Origin: a virus
Lineage: Duplodnaviria > Caudoviricetes
Direction: 5' to 3' (one strand)
Virus record (IMG/VR): IMGVR_UViG_2936413993_000002
Span: 1-64,000 of that record
Length of the DNA stretch: 64,000 nt
Below the pieces are notes generated by a model, which was given only the letters and a program-made list of their open reading frames with translations, was not told where the DNA came from and made no database searches. Positions 1-31,416 of the stretch are shown piece by piece. Each line of letters opens with the position of its first letter. The stretch's first letter is position 1. A program made the translations under genes and the position numbers.

Positions 1-144
1 ATGAGACTAGGTGAAAGAGTTATTAAATTAAACAGCTTATATATAATGTTGGACAATAAAAATCTTTTTAAGAACCTATGGTCATATAATGCATCAATTG
101 CCATATCTGATGCAGTTAAGAAATTTAACGTTATCACAGAGTGA
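1..144 (+). CDS. Probable 3' end of a hypothetical protein cut by the window edge
   Basis: Frame 1 is open from base 1 to TGA at 142-144. Confidence 0.35.
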   Translation: MRLGERVIKLNSLYIMLDNKNLFKNLWSYNASIAISDAVKKFNVITE

Positions 145-1283: not shown

Positions 1284-1345
1284 CTTTTAAGAGCATATTA
1301 AAATTACCACTGTTTATCACCTTAGAGGTACATCATGAAGAATAG

Positions 1346-1386
1346 AAATCCAGTGAGGATACTCTCCATTTCCCTCACTGGATTTT
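1346..1386. terminator. Bidirectional intrinsic terminator between convergent genes
   Basis: AAATCCAGTGAGG...CCTCACTGGATTT inverted repeat. Confidence 0.7.
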
Positions 1387-1392
1387 CTTATA

Positions 1393-1725
1393 TTATTTTG
1401 CTGCAGACTTAACTTCTTTCACTACAGCTTCAATTAATTGATTCAACTCGTCTTCACTAATCTTAATTTTCTTAGATGCTAAGAGATCCAATAATTGTCC
1501 TTTTGCAATTTCGAATTTTTCTTCACCTTTTAATTCATGTGAAACTTGTTCCACAGCATTGACTACAATTTTAACTAGACCTTTATTATGTTCTAATTTA
1601 GCAAGCAAACCTTTTTGTTTTAAAAATTTTGTTACGTAAGTTGTGATAATACCAGCGAAAGCAACTAACACAGTTGATAATAATTCAATAAATTGACTTT
1701 GTAGTAATTGTTGAATAGCTTCCAT
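1393..1725 (-). CDS. Phage holin (LL-H family-like)
   Basis: One N-terminal TM segment, 'VNAVEQ..GEEK..IEAVV' pattern, directly downstream of the endolysin. Confidence 0.8.
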   Translation of the reverse strand: MEAIQQLLQSQFIELLSTVLVAFAGIITTYVTKFLKQKGLLAKLEHNKGLVKIVVNAVEQVSHELKGEEKFEIAKGQLLDLLASKKIKISEDELNQLIEAVVKEVKSAAK

Positions 1726-21153: not shown

Positions 21154-24100
21154 TTATATATTTCCACCTAATTTTCTTACTCCGTTAACAAATGTATTTA
21201 ATAATGTTTTAGCACCGTTTTGATCACCAGTCACCTTTAAGTCCCCAAATGTTACATGGTAATGATTATCTCCTCCAGTAGATATAGAAGGGGAAAGGGA
21301 GGGGGCATTAGGTCTTTTAAAACTTGTCTGTAAATTCAGCGCTGCGTTACCTAAAACTTTTCCCAACTCTAAACTTTTCAACGAATTCGCTAAAGTTTTT
21401 GACTCTTCTATAGTCGATAAGAAATTTTCAGTGTCATTTTCTTTCAAAATAATTTCTTTCTTATCCAAGTAGGCTAAACCTTCAGAATCACCAGTATATC
21501 CGCCGGTATTAAATTTCTGAATTTTGATAGGCTTATAATCTTTACCGTTTAGATATCGATTGGCTTGGTTGATTAAATCAATAAGGTTATTAGATATAGC
21601 TTTTCCCATGATATTAGAATTAGCTTTAATATTACTGAAATACTTATTCAAATCCTTTTGAATCTGACTAGCATTTCCATTGATAATGTCAGAGCGCATT
21701 TTAGCAAACTTACGTTCATCATTTACAAGATTATCAAATTCTTCTTGGATAGAATCCTTTTGAGTATTTAGATTATCGATTCTAAGCTGTTTTTCTCTGT
21801 CGGATTGCATGTCATCTAGCACTTCATCCATATCTGCTAATTGATCTTGTAACTCTTTAACCTTAGCAATACCTGCAAATGAGTCATCTAATGAATATTT
21901 AGCTATGTCATCTAATAACTTTTGTCGCTCACTTTGTTTTTTAGCTAAGTCTTTTGTGTATGATTCATCGTCATCTTTCTTATTGATAGCATCAATCATT
22001 TTATCAATTGTCTTAAGACGAGTGTCTTTAATTGATTCCGCAGCTTGTTTGTAAGTATCAACAATGGTATCTACCATTTGCTTACGTTGGTCTAATAGCT
22101 GAGTCTCAAGAGAAATCATATCTTGAGTACGTTGAAGTAAATCATCTGATAATTGAGCTTTCTGCGCTTCGGTTAAAGCTTTATTGTTTTTAATTTGCTC
22201 TTTCAGATATTTTATAGCTTCTTGCTCATAACCAAACTGTTTACGAAGTAGCTTTTCTTTCTTTAATTGCGCATCCGTCCACTTATTAGAAGACTCTGTT
22301 TCATAACTTTGAACAAGGTCAATTTGAGCCAAGTCGTCTTCGAGTACAGCTTTTTTGTAGTCGATGCCAGCAAGAACAGAGTTAACTAGCTCCATATTAA
22401 GATCATTGATTTGTTGCTGTATCTGTAATGCTTCTTCTTGCATACTCAATACGTCAGACTTAGCTTGGTCAATAGCTTGTATTTTATCTGCTATTGCACT
22501 TGATGTATCTGCACTAGCTGAGCCAGTAGGGGTAGTACCAGCATATTTCGTATATATACTGTTGGCATACTTTTGACGATTACCTAGAGCATCACCACCT
22601 GAACGTTCAAACGCTTTTTCGAATAGAAGGGCAGCATCGTTAACTCCCATATTCATGAAAGCATTCATACCACCATTTTTATTAATGATGGACTTTGTTG
22701 TAGGGTCTGCACCGTTTAATTCTTTCCATAACCATTCAAGTTGAGTGTTAAGGTTAGTATAGCTAGTACCTTGAGATCCAGCAAAGTTTTTAAGTCCACT
22801 TAAACGCCCACCTAACCATTGAGCGATACCAGTAGCACCTGATGACCTATTAACAGCAGTGGTTGAAAAACCAGATTCTTGACGTAAATTTCCCATAATA
22901 CCAGCAGTTGCAGAATCAGAGAAACCTTTAGACTTAAAGAAATTCCAAACAGACGCTTCAGTACTTCCTCCACTTGCATAGTTGGAAGTAGAAGGGGAAG
23001 TGGAACTTATAGTTGTCTTAGTACCTTTAGCAACTATATTTCCTGATTTAATTTGCTTGTTAAGGCTATTAACTTCAGTATTCATTAACTTCAATTGCTG
23101 TTCTTTAAGTTTGATTTCCTGTTTAATTGCATCCTGGTATTTCTTAGAACGCTGTGGATATTCACTTTTAATTTTATCCACTTTAGCTAAAGCAAGACCT
23201 AACTCTTCCATTTTTTGCTTATATTTATCAGTTGTATATGTAGATTTTTCGTTAGCTTTGCTTGTTTTATCAGAGGAAGATTCTGCAGATGTGCCAACTT
23301 CAGTTAATCCTTGAGATACTAATCCAGAAAGTGAATCGATTTGATCATATAAATCAATTACATCTTGAATTGAATTGTATGCACCAACCATGTCGTTCAC
23401 GAATGTATCATCTGGACTAGGTAGCCCGCCCATTGCATACATTTCTAAACGTTTTTTATTTTCTTCTGATTGAAGATCCGCTAAACGTTTCTTTGCATCT
23501 TGTAATGATTGGATAGCCTTAATTTCGATGCCATAATTTTTAAGTTTTGACAGTGTAGCATTTGCAGTATTTTGCGCTTCTGCTATAACTGATTTTTCCA
23601 TATCTTTATAAGATTTTAATTTAGCGTCACGAAGTTTTAATACCGCTTCTTTATTGATGGATACCTGTCCGTTTTCAATTTTGATAGCATCGGTGAGCGA
23701 TTTTTCCTTATTCATTAGGTTTATCGCTTCGTTAGCAGATATAGATTTACCGTTAGCCATTTTCTCTAAAACTTCATTTAAAGGCGAAATTTCATTTGAA
23801 AGTGCTTCATACCCATCTTTTAATGCAACATTGACAGCGGCTTGATAATCTCCAGCTTGAGCCATTTCGATGATAATGTCTTTTATGGCTTCAAAGTCAC
23901 CTTTAGCATCTTGGAGTCTGGATGATAAATCTTTGTATTCACCCGAAACTTCCCCGACAACTTCACCATTCTCATCCCAAATTACTTTCTGACCTTTAGC
24001 TGCATCTGAAACTCCATTTATACTATCTTTAACTTGTTGGAAGGATAATTCTAGATTTCTTGATCCGCCTTCAGCAACATTATAAGAAGTAAGAAGATCA

Positions 24101-25352
24101 TCTAAATCAGCTTTAGCAATCTTATAGGCATTCTCATCATTATTTGTTACAGCATTTTGCATTTTCTTCATAGCAGAAGATACGTTGGTTGCAAAAGTAT
24201 TCAGTTCTTCAGCAGATGCACCAGAAACATCAAGTGAGCTAATAACACTGTTTACTTTAGCAGTAATAGAAGTGTCAATAGTTATGTCAGTAAAATAAGA
24301 GTCTACAGTTTTCTGCAACTCTTCACGTAATTTCATTTGTTGCTCATTGTATTGACGTTTTAATTCAGTAATTTCAATTTCGATTTTCTTTTTATCCGCA
24401 TCTGAGTATTTAATACCACTGACTCCAGCTTTATGATCAAGAACTCGATTCTTTTTATCAATTTTATTGTCTATTTTATCTGCTGATTTCAATGCGGATT
24501 GGATATTGTCTTGAGCTTCAAGTTGTTGTAGTTCTTTCTTTTGACGAACAAGTTCTTTAGTATACTCAATTTCTTGTTTAAGTGCATCTCCAACTTTTAA
24601 GACAGCATTTCCTTGTGAGTCATAATGATCAACAAGAGAAGGGAGGAGACCCGCAAGTTGTTGTGATACTTGTAAATACTCTTTTTCTTTATCGCTATTA
24701 AAATTGCCCGAGTGTTTAGCTTCAGTTAATTCTTGATATTTCTTTAATAATTCATCAGTTGCTTGTTTATTAGCTGTTAATGACTCAACCGTTGTATTCT
24801 GAATTTGTTCATATTCTTGTTGTTTTTGTTTAGCTTCGGCAAAGTGGTTTGTTATTTTTTCGATAGCAAAACCTAAAACAGTTAATATAGCACCTACGCC
24901 AGTAGCCACCATTAAACCACGTAATGCTGTTTTAAATACAGCAGTAGCTATAGCTGCTCTTGACATACCAGCTTCCAAACCAAATAAAGAAGTTGCAGTA
25001 CCAGCTAGAGATACATTTCCAGTAAGAAGGGCAGTAGACATTCCTCGAACATTCTTACTTAGTAATACTGTTGCGACACCAGCAGTTCCCATTACAATAG
25101 GTAATACTCCAATTACATCTATTACATCGCCAGTAGTTTTTAGAAAGTCACCAAATTCTTCAGTAGCCACAATTAAAGTATCAGATATTAGTGCATCTCC
25201 AGCACTTACTGCCAAAGATGTAAATGCGTTAGAAAGGCGGTTAATACGAGCTTGTAGAGATTCTGAATATTTTTCTTGTTCACGCATTGCCGAGCCAAAA
25301 CTATTAGCCGCTGTTTCAGATGCTTCTTGCGCTATCGAGTAGTTGTTCATCA
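21154..25352 (-). CDS. Tape measure protein, exon 4 (contains a phage tail lysozyme domain)
   Basis: Long helical protein with 'VWNFFKSKGFSDSATAGIMGNLRQESGF...GIAQWLGGR' lysozyme; continues exon 3 in frame after intron removal. Confidence 0.9.
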
Positions 25353-25662
25353 CGTTAATTCATATATTTCTATATGCACAGACTATATCATCATCTTAAT
25401 AAGATGTTCGGCACTTCGAACGGTAGCTCATTACCCGTCCTACAATTAGTCGTTGCACTTTTCCTCCCATAAAAGAAATAGGGGACTTAGCACAGGATTG
25501 CCATATTCAATATAAATAAGATATATTGAACTTAGGTTTCCCTGTTAGCAAATTCATTAGCAATCATTTCCTATTGTTACTAAACGTTGAATTTACACCT
25601 CTGAGCAATAGAGTTCACCGAATTTTACATATATTATCACTAATATACGGCACTGTATTCCA
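25353..25662 (-). ncRNA. Group I intron 3 of the tape measure gene (310 nt, no ORF)
   Basis: Exon ends in U (GCAU); P1 GCAU|UG-GAAUA-CAGUGC with U.G pair; P7 elements GCAACGACUA and GAUAUAGUCUG; terminal G; splicing gives RFNALMNNYS. Confidence 0.9.
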
Positions 25663-26258: not shown

Positions 26259-26569
26259 CAATTATACCCTGTGTTTCCACATATTTAAAAGGGGTTAGAC
26301 TATATCTTGTAGTCAATGACTACGTTGGCACTTCCTATAAAGGAATTTCACCTTTACAGTACAATCCTCATCTCCATATCATTTGACGTAGGAGGTACGA
26401 ATTAGTCGTTACACCTTCAAGAAAGTTTCCCTTCAAGCTTGGCACGGTATTACCATATCCCTATGGACTTAGGCTTCCACCGTTAGCATTCGCTAGAACA
26501 CACCCTGCATTTACAGGTTCACCAACTTCTTATAGTATGTCGCCATACTAAGCAGCACAACAGAAGTTT
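26259..26569 (-). ncRNA. Group I intron 1 of the tape measure gene (311 nt, no ORF)
   Basis: Exon GCAGU pairs with guide GCUGC; P10 UGUUGU pairs with 3' exon ACAACA; P7 elements AACGACUA and AGAUAUAGUCU; terminal G; splicing gives DNNYAV-TTLDL. Confidence 0.92.
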
Positions 26570-27975
26570 ACTGCGTAATTGTTATCAACTTCATTTAATT
26601 TATCAGCTATCTGAGCAGAATCTTCCGCAGCTATATTGAAATTGAGCATTGCTGCAGTAAGAGTATTAACAGTATCATCTGGAGTTAAATCCGAGACATT
26701 CTGTAGGATTTGAGCAGTGCGTGATACAGCAGTCAACTGATTTTCATCATATCCCATTCGACCAAAGCCGCCATACATATCAAGGATGTCACCGATTTTA
26801 TTCGAGAGTTGATCACCTAGAGCAATAGATTCCTTCATTAAATCATTAAATTTATAGTCTGGTAAATCCATCACTCTTCGTAAATTGGTCATTTTTGTAT
26901 CAAGTTCAACCACTTGATTTGTCATGTCTTTAATAGTATTAACAAATCCATAAAATGCCCCATATGTAAGCATTCCAACCGAAATAAAGCTAAATGCCGA
27001 TTGCACTCTTTCGCCAAATGTTCTAGCTTGAGCACCTGCATTTCTTGCTTCTGAGGTTATTTCATTAAACCTTAAAGACATTTCACGCAATCTTTGATTC
27101 AATTGAGGAGTTCTAGCTGTTAATGAGTTTATTGACTGTAAGTAAGCATTCAACTGAGCCGTTTGCGTTGAGTTTAAATTAGAATTAGCTTTAAAGTTAT
27201 TTACTTTTAATTCAGCTTCACGTTGAGCAAGTATTAACTTATTTTGCATTTCTCTAACTTTATTAACATTATCAATGTTTTGTTTAAGTCTATTTAATTG
27301 TTCAATATTCTTAGCACTATTAACTGCATTATTTAATCTAGATAAACTATCAGAAGATATTTTACCTTCACTGTTTAAAAGTCTAAGGGTATCTCTTAAT
27401 TTATTTTTACTATTTATTAATGTTTCAGTTGCTTTTCTTTCTTGGTCTAGGTTCTGTACAGTTTTAACAGAGGTAACATCACCATTGACATTAGAATTTA
27501 CAGTTGTATTTGTGAATCCATTCTTAAATTGATTAGAAGTAGAAGTACCATTATTAGTCTGAGTAGTAACTTGTTTTTGTTTCTGACCAAGTTTATCATA
27601 CGCTACTTGTAATTTATTTGTATTTTCAATTTCCTTTTGAGTAGCTTTATTCTTATTATTAATACGAGTTATTTCTTTTTGAATAATTTCTCCACTTTTT
27701 AACTGTTGAGAAATCCTTTCTTTTGTAACGCCATTTACATCTTTAGTAATTGTTTTTTCTTCTTTAAGAACTCTATTCAATTGAGAAGAGATATTCTTAT
27801 AGTTTTCCATAGCTTTAGCATAATCTGTAAGAGACTTTGCTACTTTATCATCAAGCTGGATATTTAGTTTAATCTTTGATAAATCTTTTTCTATTTTGGA
27901 TATTACTTTATTTACTTCGGTAATAGTAGCTTTAGAATTCAAAGTACCTATAATTCTAAGTTTTAAATCTGACAT
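26570..27975 (-). CDS. Tape measure protein (YomI/CwlP-like), exon 1; spliced CDS is 5964 nt / 1987 aa
   Basis: AAAGGAG RBS; 'LDTKMTNLRRVMD...ADKLNEVDNNYAV' tape measure core; exon lengths 1406+136+223+4199 sum to a multiple of 3. Confidence 0.9.
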
Positions 27976-28039
27976 TAAGACATCTCCTTTCTAAAAAAGT
28001 GCATAAAAAAAGAGATGCTCTTATCAGAACATCTCAAAA

Positions 28040-28843
28040 TTAATTGCTATAATTTACAACTTCAATTTTATACTTTGTATATTTCTCTCCGATCATTTCA
28101 ACCATAGTATCAAAACTCTTTTGTTCATTTGGTAGTAATGCATCAGAACTGTTTACATAAGTTGTTTTCGTATCTTGAATATCTCCATTTTCATTATAAA
28201 ACGATACTTTTACTTCAATATAGGAGAGAGGGGAAGAAGTATTATTCTTAACTGTTCCTATGACTGAAATAAAATTACCACTATATTTAGCGTTATGTTT
28301 CTCAATACTTACTTTAGAAGTACCTGATTTCTTTGACTTATCACTAGATGAATTTAAAGTTATAGTTTTATTGCCCCCAGTACCGATAACTTCCATAGCT
28401 AAATCATCGGCAGATTGATCATACTCATAGGGGATTACGTAAGAAACAAGGTCATCATTTTCATCTCTACCCATTACAAATATGTCTTGTATGGAACAAT
28501 ATTTGTTCCTCCCGCATTCGACAAGTGAACTAGTCCCGGTTGTTTCATCTATCTGTTTCGAAATACTCTCCATCGCCAACAATTTCTCATCATCTGACAT
28601 TTCTATAAACTTAGAAGATGGGTATGCGGCTATTTGATAAGGATAAGATTTCTTTCCTTCGAGTGAAAACACTTTAGCATCATCATCTTTAGTTATGTCC
28701 ACTGATGATATATATTCATTTTCTAAGAGTTTGCTTTCAAGATATCTTAGTTTCGTCTCATCTAATCTATTTATATACAAGAATAAAGAAACTGAAATAA
28801 TTAAAATTATACCAATAAATAATGATATTTTCTTTTTACTCAC
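28040..28843 (-). CDS. Membrane-anchored protein with C-terminal FxLYD-like domain (moron)
   Basis: N-terminal TM; 'GTVKNNT..LSYIEVKVSFYNENG...LLPNEQKSF'. Confidence 0.7.
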   Translation of the reverse strand: MSKKKISLFIGIILIISVSLFLYINRLDETKLRYLESKLLENEYISSVDITKDDDAKVFSLEGKKSYPYQIAAYPSSKFIEMSDDEKLLAMESISKQIDETTGTSSLVECGRNKYCSIQDIFVMGRDENDDLVSYVIPYEYDQSADDLAMEVIGTGGNKTITLNSSSDKSKKSGTSKVSIEKHNAKYSGNFISVIGTVKNNTSSPLSYIEVKVSFYNENGDIQDTKTTYVNSSDALLPNEQKSFDTMVEMIGEKYTKYKIEVVNYSN

Positions 28844-28921
28844 TCATGTCTCACCCTCACAAATATAGTTACTTCCATAATATCACATCACATGAAAATT
28901 GTAACTATGGTGAAGGGGAGA

Positions 28922-29068
28922 GATCAATAAAAAAGACCCCACCATTTAAGGTAAAGGTCTTTTTTATTGATCGATCACTAAGAAAAATCTACTTGAATAT
29001 TTCCTTAATTAGATTTTTCTTCTCTAATTCAACTCACTAGAGGTATAGTACCTCTCTCAAAACTATCT
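28922..29068 (-). ncRNA. Candidate ~140-nt small RNA downstream of the PemK-like toxin (two hairpin units plus terminator)
   Basis: Own TTGACA-17-TATTAT promoter; hairpins at 29039-29055 and 28980-29021; terminator palindrome 28922-28972; no ORF with an ATG start. Confidence 0.6.
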
Positions 29069-29074
29069 AATCTA

Positions 29075-29103
29075 ATAATAACGGTAGTAAGTTTTATTGT
29101 CAA
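29075..29103 (-). promoter_or_regulatory. Near-consensus sigma-A promoter for the candidate small RNA
   Basis: TTGACA (29103-29098), 17 bp, TATTAT (29080-29075). Confidence 0.7.
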
Positions 29104-29112
29104 CTCATATGT

Positions 29113-29673
29113 TTAAATTTTTATTCCTGATTTTTTCATCGCTTCATTAATCGCATCCATATATTTCCCTTGCAATCTCCCTGTTCTTGAAGTGAAATCC
29201 AATCTCATCTTACTCACACAAACAATCCTTAATACATTCGCCCATCTTGGTATTGCAGCTAGATCATATACAAATGGAATATCTACGCAATATGGTTTTC
29301 CTTTTTTATCAAGAGGAATTTTCCCACTTGATAAAGGTAACACAAAAACACTGTCCCCAGTTTCCTTTAATATTACCGCAGGATGATGTCCGCCGAATTC
29401 TTTACCTACATTGAAACCAAAATGAACCCAATGCACATAAGATCTTTTAATCAAAGGAGCTTTATTATCTGGGATAGTAAACAAATCTTCATTTTTGATC
29501 ATTTCTGTTTTTAAAGTAGTCCATTCTAAATAATTTTTAACTTTTTTCGAAGATTCACTACCTGTCCCATATACTGACTTTTTAAAATTCGTAATTGATT
29601 GGATTGTATTATCCAGTATAATATCTATTTCATCTTTATTTACTTTGATTTCACTCAAACTCTCACCTCCCAT
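29113..29673 (-). CDS. PemK/MazF-family toxin-like endoribonuclease with N-terminal extension; no protein antitoxin gene adjacent
   Basis: 'RSYVHWVHFGFNVGKEFGGHHPAVILK...VFVLPLSS...IVCVSKMRL' MazF-fold pattern. Confidence 0.75.
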   Translation of the reverse strand: MGGESLSEIKVNKDEIDIILDNTIQSITNFKKSVYGTGSESSKKVKNYLEWTTLKTEMIKNEDLFTIPDNKAPLIKRSYVHWVHFGFNVGKEFGGHHPAVILKETGDSVFVLPLSSGKIPLDKKGKPYCVDIPFVYDLAAIPRWANVLRIVCVSKMRLDFTSRTGRLQGKYMDAINEAMKKSGIKI

Positions 29674-29769
29674 ATTTCTCTACATTTTACCATATTAAGA
29701 AAATAGCAGGGAGGAAACTATTCGAAATAAAGAACATTTTGTCAATTATTGCGGTTGCCTGGGAAATTA

Positions 29770-31236
29770 TTAAATATGAGAAACCTGAAACTGTGTATTT
29801 GCAACCATAAAATAAGGTTGAATGATTGTGTTATTTAGAACTATGCTTCCGTTAGAAGTTAAATGATAGTTAAAACTATTGTAATCATCTAAAATACCAT
29901 TTTTCAGAATATAAAATTCTATTAACTTTTCGCAGAGAAGAGAATTTTTATTTATGTCTTTTTCCCATAAATAAAGTATCTTTGTATTATACTTATTTTC
30001 AATATAATTTCTTTTTCTAGAATCTTTCTTGGCATTCTTAGCTTGCATATCATTTAAATATTCTACACTTTCGTATCTTATAGGAGAGGCATGCCAATAA
30101 TCTCCCATTATTTCTATTCCTAACTGATAATCAGGTAGATAAATATCCATTGAATAATATCCAAATACTTTTTCATTTTGATAACTAATCCCTATTGATT
30201 CTAACAAATTGTTAATTTTAACATGAATACTTGTTCCAGTGTTTTTTAAATCAGAGATTTCCATTCTTCTTTGTTGATAACAATCGAATGAGCAAAAGAA
30301 GTACTTATTCTTATTAAAAACACTTTCATGCACATACTTAATTTTTGCGCATGTATAACATTTAACTTTTACTTTTTCTTTTTTTGGATTGGGATTATGA
30401 AGTTTAAAGTATTCATTTCTACATCTCGATGAACAGAAAATTATATTTCCTCGAATTTCACTAGGATATTTATAGGTTTCTGTATTACATAGTGCACAAT
30501 AATTTTTTAATTTATTTTGTTCTCTTTTAAAGTCGCTCATTACATCTTTAAACTCATCCGTTTTCGTCCATATCAATCGACAAGCATTGGAGCAAAAATA
30601 TCTATCTTGAGATTCAATTCTGTATTTCGCTAAATAAAATTCATTTCCACAAGTATGACAATTTACAAAAGAACCTTTCATAATTGAAGTATTCGATTTA
30701 CCAATTTTATGCTTATCAGCACATCTTCTTGAACAAAAATGATTTTCACCACTATTTACTCTTGTTTTTATTCTAATAATTTCAGACGAGCAATATGTAC
30801 ATTTTAGTTGTAATCTCTCAACCCTATATCCTAAGGGACGACCTAGTTTAAATTTATCAGTACATTCTTTTGAACAAAAGACATTTTTATTTTCAATTAA
30901 ATCACTTTTTGCTCTTAATATTTTTTTGTGACAATACATACAATTTAAATCAATTTTACTATAATTCCAAGGTTTTTTTCCTATTAAATATGAATCCTGA
31001 CAATTACGTGAACAAAAATGATTTTTATTTTTAGATTTTCCACTGTAAGTAGCTATATGATTTTCTCCACAATAGTCACATATAAATTTAACTGGAGCTC
31101 TGCTAGAAAAAGGTAAATGCTCCACATTTACATGGAATTCCTTACCGTTCTCAAAACTCTTATATCCTAGATTAGTATAATAGGCTTTATTTCTATTACT
31201 CCATTTCATGACAGTAGTCTGATTAGGCACAATCAC
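29770..31236 (-). CDS. Free-standing endonuclease: about six tandem CxxC..FCSxxC zinc-binding repeats plus C-terminal Vsr/DUF559-like nuclease
   Basis: Repeated C-x2-C...FCS-x2-C; 'YSMDIYLP..LGIEIMGDYWH...KD..K...LYLWE'. Confidence 0.8.
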   Translation of the reverse strand: MIVPNQTTVMKWSNRNKAYYTNLGYKSFENGKEFHVNVEHLPFSSRAPVKFICDYCGENHIATYSGKSKNKNHFCSRNCQDSYLIGKKPWNYSKIDLNCMYCHKKILRAKSDLIENKNVFCSKECTDKFKLGRPLGYRVERLQLKCTYCSSEIIRIKTRVNSGENHFCSRRCADKHKIGKSNTSIMKGSFVNCHTCGNEFYLAKYRIESQDRYFCSNACRLIWTKTDEFKDVMSDFKREQNKLKNYCALCNTETYKYPSEIRGNIIFCSSRCRNEYFKLHNPNPKKEKVKVKCYTCAKIKYVHESVFNKNKYFFCSFDCYQQRRMEISDLKNTGTSIHVKINNLLESIGISYQNEKVFGYYSMDIYLPDYQLGIEIMGDYWHASPIRYESVEYLNDMQAKNAKKDSRKRNYIENKYNTKILYLWEKDINKNSLLCEKLIEFYILKNGILDDYNSFNYHLTSNGSIVLNNTIIQPYFMVANTQFQVSHI

Positions 31237-31416
31237 AATCCATCATCCTCCTCACAATATCTCACTCTAATAAGAAAATAGGGCAGGGGAGATGTAGAGT
31301 GAGGATTCATCATCTTTCTTCACATATGATCAGTATGCTGCACCACTGCCGAATATTAAACTTTCCATAATACCCGTGACCGTTTCTCGCTATGTAATAA
31401 CTAAAATATTTCTCTC

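Follow-up and report, generated by a model that had tools for sequence, protein, structure and literature searches.

The stretch analysed here (hereafter the window) comprises 64,000 nucleotides (nt) of a virus of the Caudoviricetes, positions 1 to 64,000 of IMG/VR record IMGVR_UViG_2936413993_000002, and carries on its minus strand a gene for a nuclease of the MazF/PemK fold (29113..29673) followed directly by a small, structured RNA gene. The nuclease gene encodes 186 amino acids (aa), or 181 aa from an in-frame TTG at 29658, the likelier start, which is preceded by a GGAGGTGA ribosome-binding site; the closest full-length homologue starts at the position equal to this TTG. Candidate promoters for the toxin gene lie within 29684..29745 (minus strand), as TTGACA-17-AATAGT (29745-29717; 10/12 matches to consensus) and as an extended -10 element, TGnTAAAAT (29692-29684). 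At the other end of the gene, a further promoter (29075..29103, minus strand) begins 9 nt past the TAA stop codon and consists of TTGACA (29103-29098), a 17-nt spacer and TATTAT (29080-29075). With 11/12 matches, it is the top promoter-like site on either strand of the region 27900-30000, and the position of its -10 element places the predicted start of transcription at about 29068. The RNA body (28975..29068, minus strand) runs from a GAUAGU leader through unit 1, a linker and unit 2. Unit 1 (29058-29034, minus strand) is made up of GAG (29058-29056), a 7-bp hairpin (29055-29039) and AGUGA (29038-29034); unit 2 (29024-28975, minus strand) has the same frame, with GAG (29024-29022), a 12-bp hairpin (29021-28980) and AGUGA (28979-28975). 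An intrinsic terminator on the same strand (28972-28922), which has a long, symmetric stem, an A-run and a U-run, terminates the RNA and the read-through toxin mRNA alike. The RNA of 149 nt has a predicted folding energy of -47.3 kcal/mol (z = -5.95), a value equalled by none of 200 shuffles.

The minus strand holds no open reading frame (ORF) of at least 30 aa between 29112 and 28844, and the gap between the toxin gene and the 488-aa gene upstream of it is 96 nt, so that no antitoxin ORF flanks the toxin; besides the 488-aa gene and a 267-aa gene downstream, no flanking ORF of at least 30 aa is present on this strand. The initial annotation had described an orphan toxin gene with no antitoxin ORF beside it, a TTGACA-17-TATTAT promoter just past its stop codon, about 140 nt without a usable ORF ahead of a strong terminator, and two GAG-hairpin-AGUGA units, and this description is accurate in all details.

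Related loci (designated by numbers with the prefix L) were collected by scanning viral, genome and metagenome collections and by tblastn against phage and plasmid records. This identified 86 loci across phages, prophages, plasmids and metagenomes, in 83 of which the toxin frame reaches its stop codon, giving 62 distinct downstream sequences. Members include gp38 of Geobacillus virus E3, a homologue in Robertmurraya siralis, and homologues on a Heyndrickxia oleronia plasmid and a Bacillus subtilis plasmid, in both of which the toxin gene adjoins rep; the module occurs on plasmids beside rep or par genes and in accessory slots of prophages. A megablast search of 28000-31300 against the phage collection returned no match. 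When the interval from -40 to +120 of the toxin stop codon was compared with TTGACA-16..18-TATAAT, a promoter matching in at least 10/12 positions was present in 57/62 loci, as opposed to 217/2452 control windows of 160 nt taken from elsewhere in the same loci, and one matching in at least 11/12 positions was present in 24/62 loci (versus 42/2452 controls). Three of the five loci that missed the lower threshold (L035, L051 and L072) hold the RNA as judged by covariance model, and the toxin frame is broken early in L072 and L073. In 44/55 loci, this RNA promoter also resembles the consensus more closely than does the best site ahead of the toxin gene (equal in seven, lower in four). The two differ mostly in the -35 element, which matched in at least 5/6 positions in 53/55 loci for the RNA promoter, compared with 20 for the toxin promoter.

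The closest relative, L002, encodes a protein that is 90% identical to the toxin of the window and has different neighbours. DNA homology between the two (86% identity) is limited to 29789 to 28926. This span opens about 115 nt ahead of the toxin start, closes on the final base of the terminator and includes the candidate toxin-promoter stretch 29684..29745. The toxin gene and the RNA gene therefore form one cassette, and the limits of this alignment mark out a mobile cassette of about 865 bp on the minus strand, which is carried as a moron between prophage tail genes. When flanking ORFs were compared all against all, no cluster of neighbours occurred in more than 4/62 loci, and the next sizeable gene lies on the opposite strand in, for example, L002, L008, L009, L011, L015, L016, L027, L040, L054, L057 and L062. 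The initial annotation had allowed that the promoter might simply serve the downstream 267-aa gene (28040-28843, minus strand) by read-through. This is unlikely, because the terminator intervenes, the genes downstream differ between loci and are often on the opposite strand, and the homology to L002 stops at the terminator. The 267-aa gene has a promoter-like site of its own (28905-28877), past the terminator.

Because the pattern seen in the window recurs in its relatives, it is more than chance. An AT-rich spacer in which a promoter-like site and hairpins happen to precede an ordinary terminator would draw on the general richness of this DNA in such sites (16 that match in at least 9/12 positions in 27900-30000, against 12.1 expected from shuffles), but this explanation is contradicted by the recurrence, by the cassette boundary and by the covariation described below, and we regard it as barely credible. 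The feature is real and the family is conserved.

The toxin itself is a genuine member of the PemK/MazF family and is not ToxN/AbiQ-like. Residues 77-181 match Pfam PF02452 (PemK_toxin; E 7e-9, 36.3 bits against a cut-off of 23.1 bits), and no other Pfam family was found on the protein at E <= 0.1; PADLOC and NCBIfam returned no match for it. In an AlphaFold2 model (mean predicted local distance difference test score 74.8, from a 10-sequence alignment), a MazF barrel at about residues 77-181 follows an N-terminal extension of about 75 aa that contains a helical hairpin (about residues 13-60) with long helices at 13-34 and 39-60. The top Foldseek match of this model was Staphylococcus aureus MazF (4mzp_A; template modelling score 0.78, normalised to the target), and the matches among the Protein Data Bank (PDB) entries listed were all MazF/EndoA/MoxT-type chains. 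A profile of ten homologues, compared with solved structures, found B. subtilis MazF/EndoA (E 1.6e-3) and aligned the GGHHP motif of the family with GGVRP of that protein, which places His97 at the position of the arginine. In MazF, this arginine is catalytic together with a Thr or Ser (Arg25 and Thr48 in the B. subtilis protein). Among 56 family proteins of at least 150 aa from the loci, His97, Gly86, Asn88, Glu92, Phe93 and Gly95 are invariant (56/56), and 55/56 retain Ser/Thr116, Arg157 and Pro113. Purifying selection of this kind suggests that the enzyme is active and that its catalytic site is modified. In an exhaustive profile search, 148 representative clusters were found at E <= 1e-10, and at E <= 1e-3 their number was 733; the toxin family is real but uncommon.

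The N-terminal extension is likewise conserved (E62 in 54/56 proteins, W51 in 50/56 and K43 in 49/56). One reading of this conservation is that the helical hairpin is a fused antitoxin or regulatory domain, and that the RNA region is a 3' stabiliser and terminator with an incidental promoter. PHROGs split the protein into 'antitoxin mazE-like' (residues 24-118) and 'MazF-like growth inhibitor', which would be in line with such a fusion, the former being a label only. However, the N-terminal part has no sequence relative among PDB sequences, MazE included, down to E = 10, and searches of the ESM Atlas with the N-terminal domain returned low-score PemK-related clusters only. An incidental promoter, moreover, would be expected neither to keep a near-consensus -35 element nor to fall at the stop codon at the frequencies given above, and a stabiliser leaves the two units with matching flanks unexplained. 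We therefore consider a fused antitoxin improbable.

Most of the RNAs that were inspected follow a common plan. A short leader and a conserved single-stranded motif precede a short hairpin and AG(U); beyond a linker, the motif recurs and is followed by a longer hairpin, a second AG(U) and a U-run. The first hairpin usually has 4-7 bp, its loops being mostly of 4 nt and of the stable GNRA or UUCG type, and the second, longer hairpin often serves as terminator too. The flanking motif differs by protein clade, with UGAG...AGUG in the clade of the window, GUGAAG...AGU in a second clade (clade B) and AUGrrAG...CAGU in a clade from gut metagenomes (clade C); the hairpin stems, by contrast, vary freely, and they covary while the flanks stay fixed. 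When the six bases 5' and the two bases 3' of the two hairpins were compared within each RNA, at least 7/8 matched in 39/57 RNAs (289/1140 dinucleotide shuffles), and all eight matched in 13/57 (24/1140 shuffles). In clade B, the whole two-unit RNA gene can be present in two tandem copies after the toxin gene, as seen at L023 2718-2808, L024 1277-1367, L025 2605-2697, L027 1202-1303, L028 2717-2814, L030 1046-1136 and L035 2778-2868; these tandem copies look like a step towards an array.

Since the only conserved sequence of the RNA is the single-stranded flanks of the hairpins, present twice, it fits a decoy bound by a protein and not a base-pairing RNA. We thus see little room for a type I-like antitoxin that would repress the translation or stability of the toxin mRNA by base pairing. 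RNA antitoxins of Bacillus prophage toxins do, as a matter of general knowledge, usually base-pair, and the strong promoter would make the RNA abundant by design. Against this, the RNA is transcribed in the same direction as the toxin gene and so has no built-in antisense overlap; the predicted duplex with the translation-initiation region is no stronger for cognate pairs (-20.3 kcal/mol) than for non-cognate pairs (-20.4 kcal/mol; median rank 0.48), and, with the entire toxin mRNA as target, the longest complementary stretch has a mean length of 8.3 nt in cognate pairs, against 8.5 nt in non-cognate ones. Base pairing with the toxin mRNA is thus a very improbable explanation.

Covariation supports the paired structure of the RNA in several clades. 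For the gut clade (clade C, n = 17), RNAalifold predicted 24 pairs, and in 15 of these both partners have changed; 99.0% of cells were paired (86.6% in shuffles), and the covariation score of 0.527 (0.271 in shuffles) was reached by none of 500 shuffles, with slid controls at 0.16 or below. Likewise, 10/15 pairs are compensatory in clade B (n = 9). A covariance model built from clade B alone retrieved the gut-clade RNAs (E 6e-6 to 5e-4) and also second tandem copies in seven loci, and its full-length matches all lay on the toxin strand. After rebuilding, the model gave 38 matches and reached Geobacillus virus E3 (E 1.7e-5) and R. siralis (E 0.069), both in the clade of the window. In an alignment of 45 matches, which was fitted to the model and in which two rows are probably chance matches in the window, 98.8% of cells were paired and covariation was 1.02 versus 0.29 when shuffled, with 0/500 shuffles as high and slid controls at 0.17 or below. 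Within the clade of the window (the window itself, L002, L003, L004 and L018), both hairpins carry compensatory changes: two pairs of hairpin 1 have changed on both sides (A-U to G-C, and G-C to A-U), and the stem of hairpin 2 differs in sequence in three lineages (12, 9 and 11-12 bp) and always lies between GAG and A/UGUG. With filters off and with models from which the sequences of this clade had been left out, 28972-29078 (minus strand) ranked first both in a 6-kb region (16.8 bits, E 0.0078) and in the whole window (26.4 bits, E 0.0024). The second-best match in the window (1340-1440, minus strand), which overlaps the 3' end of a 110-aa holin-like ORF (1393-1725) and its terminator, was judged to be due to chance.

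The same arrangement extends to temperate phages of Staphylococcus. A distant homologue lies between a repressor-type regulator gene and the integrase gene in Staphylococcus phage 92, and a match is present in 36 further records of Staphylococcus phages, under labels that vary between 'antitoxin mazE-like', 'PemK-like', 'repressor' and 'hypothetical'. In three records examined in full, a stop-codon promoter, two hairpins and a terminator come after each of the genes phage 92 ORF020 (L090 1935-2760), StB27 orf2 (L091 1369-2250) and PT1028 ORF005 (L092 1369-2280). The N-extended PemK-like gene adjoins the integrase gene in phage 92 and StB27, and the two RNA units of phage 92 are near-repeats of about 33 nt that differ by a compensatory pair.

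No terminator was found in the window between the toxin gene and the RNA, so the RNA serves as the 3' end of the toxin mRNA as well. This, combined with the stronger promoter of the RNA gene, implies that the RNA would be made in cis and in excess. The reading that we favour, at about even odds, is a type III-like toxin-antitoxin module whose RNA would bind the nuclease and neutralise it. Somewhat more tentatively, at a little short of an even chance, we propose that a PemK/MazF nuclease has exchanged its protein antitoxin for a decoy RNA of two hairpins, expressed from its own downstream promoter and gripped through the flanks of the hairpins, perhaps with help from the N-terminal helices. 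In the favoured reading, the two units would act as pseudo-substrate binding sites that fill the RNA groove of the nuclease and hold it inactive, and the stronger RNA promoter would keep the RNA in excess over the toxin. Should transcription stop, whether because the element is lost or because an infecting phage shuts off its host, decay of the RNA would free the nuclease, and growth would be arrested. The anatomy of the locus, its conservation and covariation, the limits of the cassette, the MazF fold and the conserved residues of the active site are seen in the data, and from these we infer transcription from the promoter, toxicity of the protein, direct binding between RNA and protein, and any anti-phage or addiction role.

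A ribonucleoprotein or processing relationship is the main rival to this decoy model, and an unlikely one. Here, the RNA would be a cofactor, scaffold or specificity element of the protein, or the protein would mature the RNA by cleavage at the hairpin flanks; phage or host targets would then be acted upon by the complex or by the RNA so processed. The co-inheritance of the two genes, the conservation of the flanks and the covariation fit equally well with such an arrangement; the co-occurrence of the family-specific N-terminal domain with the RNA and the second tandem RNA gene of several clade B loci also speak for it. The RNA has, however, no conserved single-stranded stretch besides the flanks that could act as a seed or guide, since stems and loops vary freely; the solved structures of the MazF family, to which the fold of this protein matches, are of toxins that, as is generally known, need no RNA cofactor; and a position beside plasmid rep or par genes suits addiction modules.

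Several observations weigh against neutralisation of the toxin by a decoy RNA. The most distant relatives (L009, L011, L016 and L067-L086) keep the promoter, hairpins and terminator, and a shared unit motif is not evident in them. The RNA lies downstream of the toxin gene and has two units, unlike every proven type III system. Relatedness and linkage among the loci mean that counts of loci are not counts of independent events, and the window's own clade numbers only five sequences. The window RNA stands barely over background in the model search, at 26.4 bits versus 24.4 bits for a chance match; because this runner-up is a coding 3' end with a terminator, the model score taken alone says little in favour of the window RNA. 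For the protein, the exchange of the catalytic arginine for histidine could have altered or abolished its RNase activity, and the conserved N-terminal extension could itself regulate the nuclease.

With ToxIN and AbiQ-antiQ, the module shares a Kid/MazF-like endoribonuclease without a protein antitoxin and an adjacent repeat-structured RNA whose units have single-stranded tails around a folded core. The repeats of ToxI present two such tails to ToxN. As in ToxIN, the RNA is part of the toxin transcript, its excess being a prediction in the present case, and the systems are found on plasmids and phage-related elements. Unlike in ToxIN, the toxin belongs to Pfam PemK_toxin and not to ToxN/AbiQ; the excess of RNA would come from a second, stronger promoter, whereas ToxIN uses a leaky terminator; and there are two imperfect hairpin units in place of 2.8-5.5 near-identical pseudoknot repeats. 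Pfam, PADLOC and Foldseek did not place the toxin in the ToxN/AbiQ, CptN or TenpN families, and the locus lacks the array typical of type III systems, with repeats upstream, a single promoter and a terminator between the repeats and the toxin gene. What it does share with type III systems is a noncoding RNA partner that is co-inherited with the toxin where a protein antitoxin is lacking. The type III-like reading put forward in the initial annotation thus holds insofar as homologues carry a conserved, covarying and separately promoted downstream RNA, but the protein lies outside the described type III families, because it is a genuine PemK/MazF protein and not ToxN/AbiQ-like. CptIN and TenpIN show that unrelated toxin families can share the principle of an RNA antitoxin; they have the upstream-array architecture of ToxIN and no sequence or Rfam match to the module of the window. 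The type II systems MazEF and PemIK share the fold and family of the toxin, with S. aureus and B. subtilis MazF as its top structural matches, but differ in that the present module has no MazE/PemI gene, carries the long N-terminal helical extension and has histidine in place of the catalytic arginine.

Searches with Rfam found no family for the RNA, the pemK motif and the type III antitoxin RNAs included, in its region of the window, in the whole window (gathering thresholds) or in 25 related loci. The comparison with the Rfam pemK and ToxI motifs that the initial annotation had proposed was likewise run, and neither these motifs nor any other Rfam family match the RNA at the E-value cut-offs used. 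The pemK motif (RF02913), a structured RNA named for its association with pemK in Bacillota, is described in Weinberg et al. 2017 (PMC5737381) and is a different RNA from that of the window; a direct search with it found nothing at the locus, the best score in the whole provirus being 12.9 bits elsewhere, against a cut-off of 34.8 bits. R. siralis, which carries the cassette, has a pemK motif on another contig (L089, G001 contig 7, 1501-1598, minus strand; 62.8 bits), between ORFs of 61 aa and 86 aa that do not look PemK-like, no protein-family search having been made of them. The name of this motif does not always reflect its context.

In full-text searches of the literature, a PemK/MazF protein with a downstream RNA partner was not found, and passages of PMC5737381, PMC11599779 and PMC8460829 contain no description of a toxin followed by an RNA in this arrangement; an earlier mention might be contained in the supplements of Weinberg et al. 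2017. A family of nucleases controlled by RNA in this manner appears to be undescribed, and the RNA family, with its promoter, two flanked hairpins and terminator, is absent from Rfam.

To our knowledge, only three families of type III toxin-antitoxin systems have been described, all with one architecture. If the proposed mechanism is correct, the module would be a fourth, with a toxin from a different family, an inverted gene order and another means of controlling the ratio of RNA to toxin, and it would directly connect type II with type III systems in evolution. The family would be spread over Bacillota phages, Staphylococcus temperate phages included, plasmids and gut metagenomes, and would account for 'orphan' N-extended PemK-like genes that are variously labelled toxin, transcriptional regulator, repressor or antitoxin MazE-like. 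With a length of about 865 bp, the module is small; in prophages it occupies known accessory or defence slots, and cultured systems that contain it are at hand in Geobacillus virus E3, the Bacillus and Heyndrickxia plasmids, and the Staphylococcus temperate phages.

The genes around the cassette were also examined. The 488-aa protein encoded just upstream (29770-31236, minus strand) combines repeated Cys-rich segments that resemble zinc ribbons with a Vsr-like endonuclease domain at its C-terminus and also matches the PHROG families 'homing endonuclease' and 'endonuclease'; it may be a free-standing nuclease of homing type. The 267-aa protein encoded downstream carries a membrane anchor at its N-terminus and an FxLYD domain at its C-terminus (NCBIfam, E 1.2e-10); it is not similar to gp41 of phage E3, the 'immunity protein' with which it had been compared (BLASTP E = 0.27). 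In Geobacillus virus E3 (L014 2941-5401), gp38 and its RNA lie just upstream of the tape-measure gene, as in the window. There, the cassette is followed by a second, short PemK-like gene, gp40, with a small ORF, gp39, ahead of it, and gp39 and gp40 may be a classical type II pair.

Further downstream in the window, a group I intron (Rfam RF00028, 79.5 bits; 25360-25626, minus strand) was found between two large ORFs of the minus strand, 26548-27975 and 21154-25353. As the upstream ORF (26548-27975, minus strand) encodes a phage minor-tail (tape measure) domain, the tape-measure gene of the window appears to be split by this intron; the stretch of about 920 nt between the ribozyme and exon 1 could provide room for an intron ORF. 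Among the related loci, a skipping-rope RNA (76 bits) was identified at L006 4823-4903, about 1.3 kb downstream of the cassette on a large viral contig, and a Bacillus-plasmid RNA (59.5 bits) at L016 836-891 on the B. subtilis plasmid.

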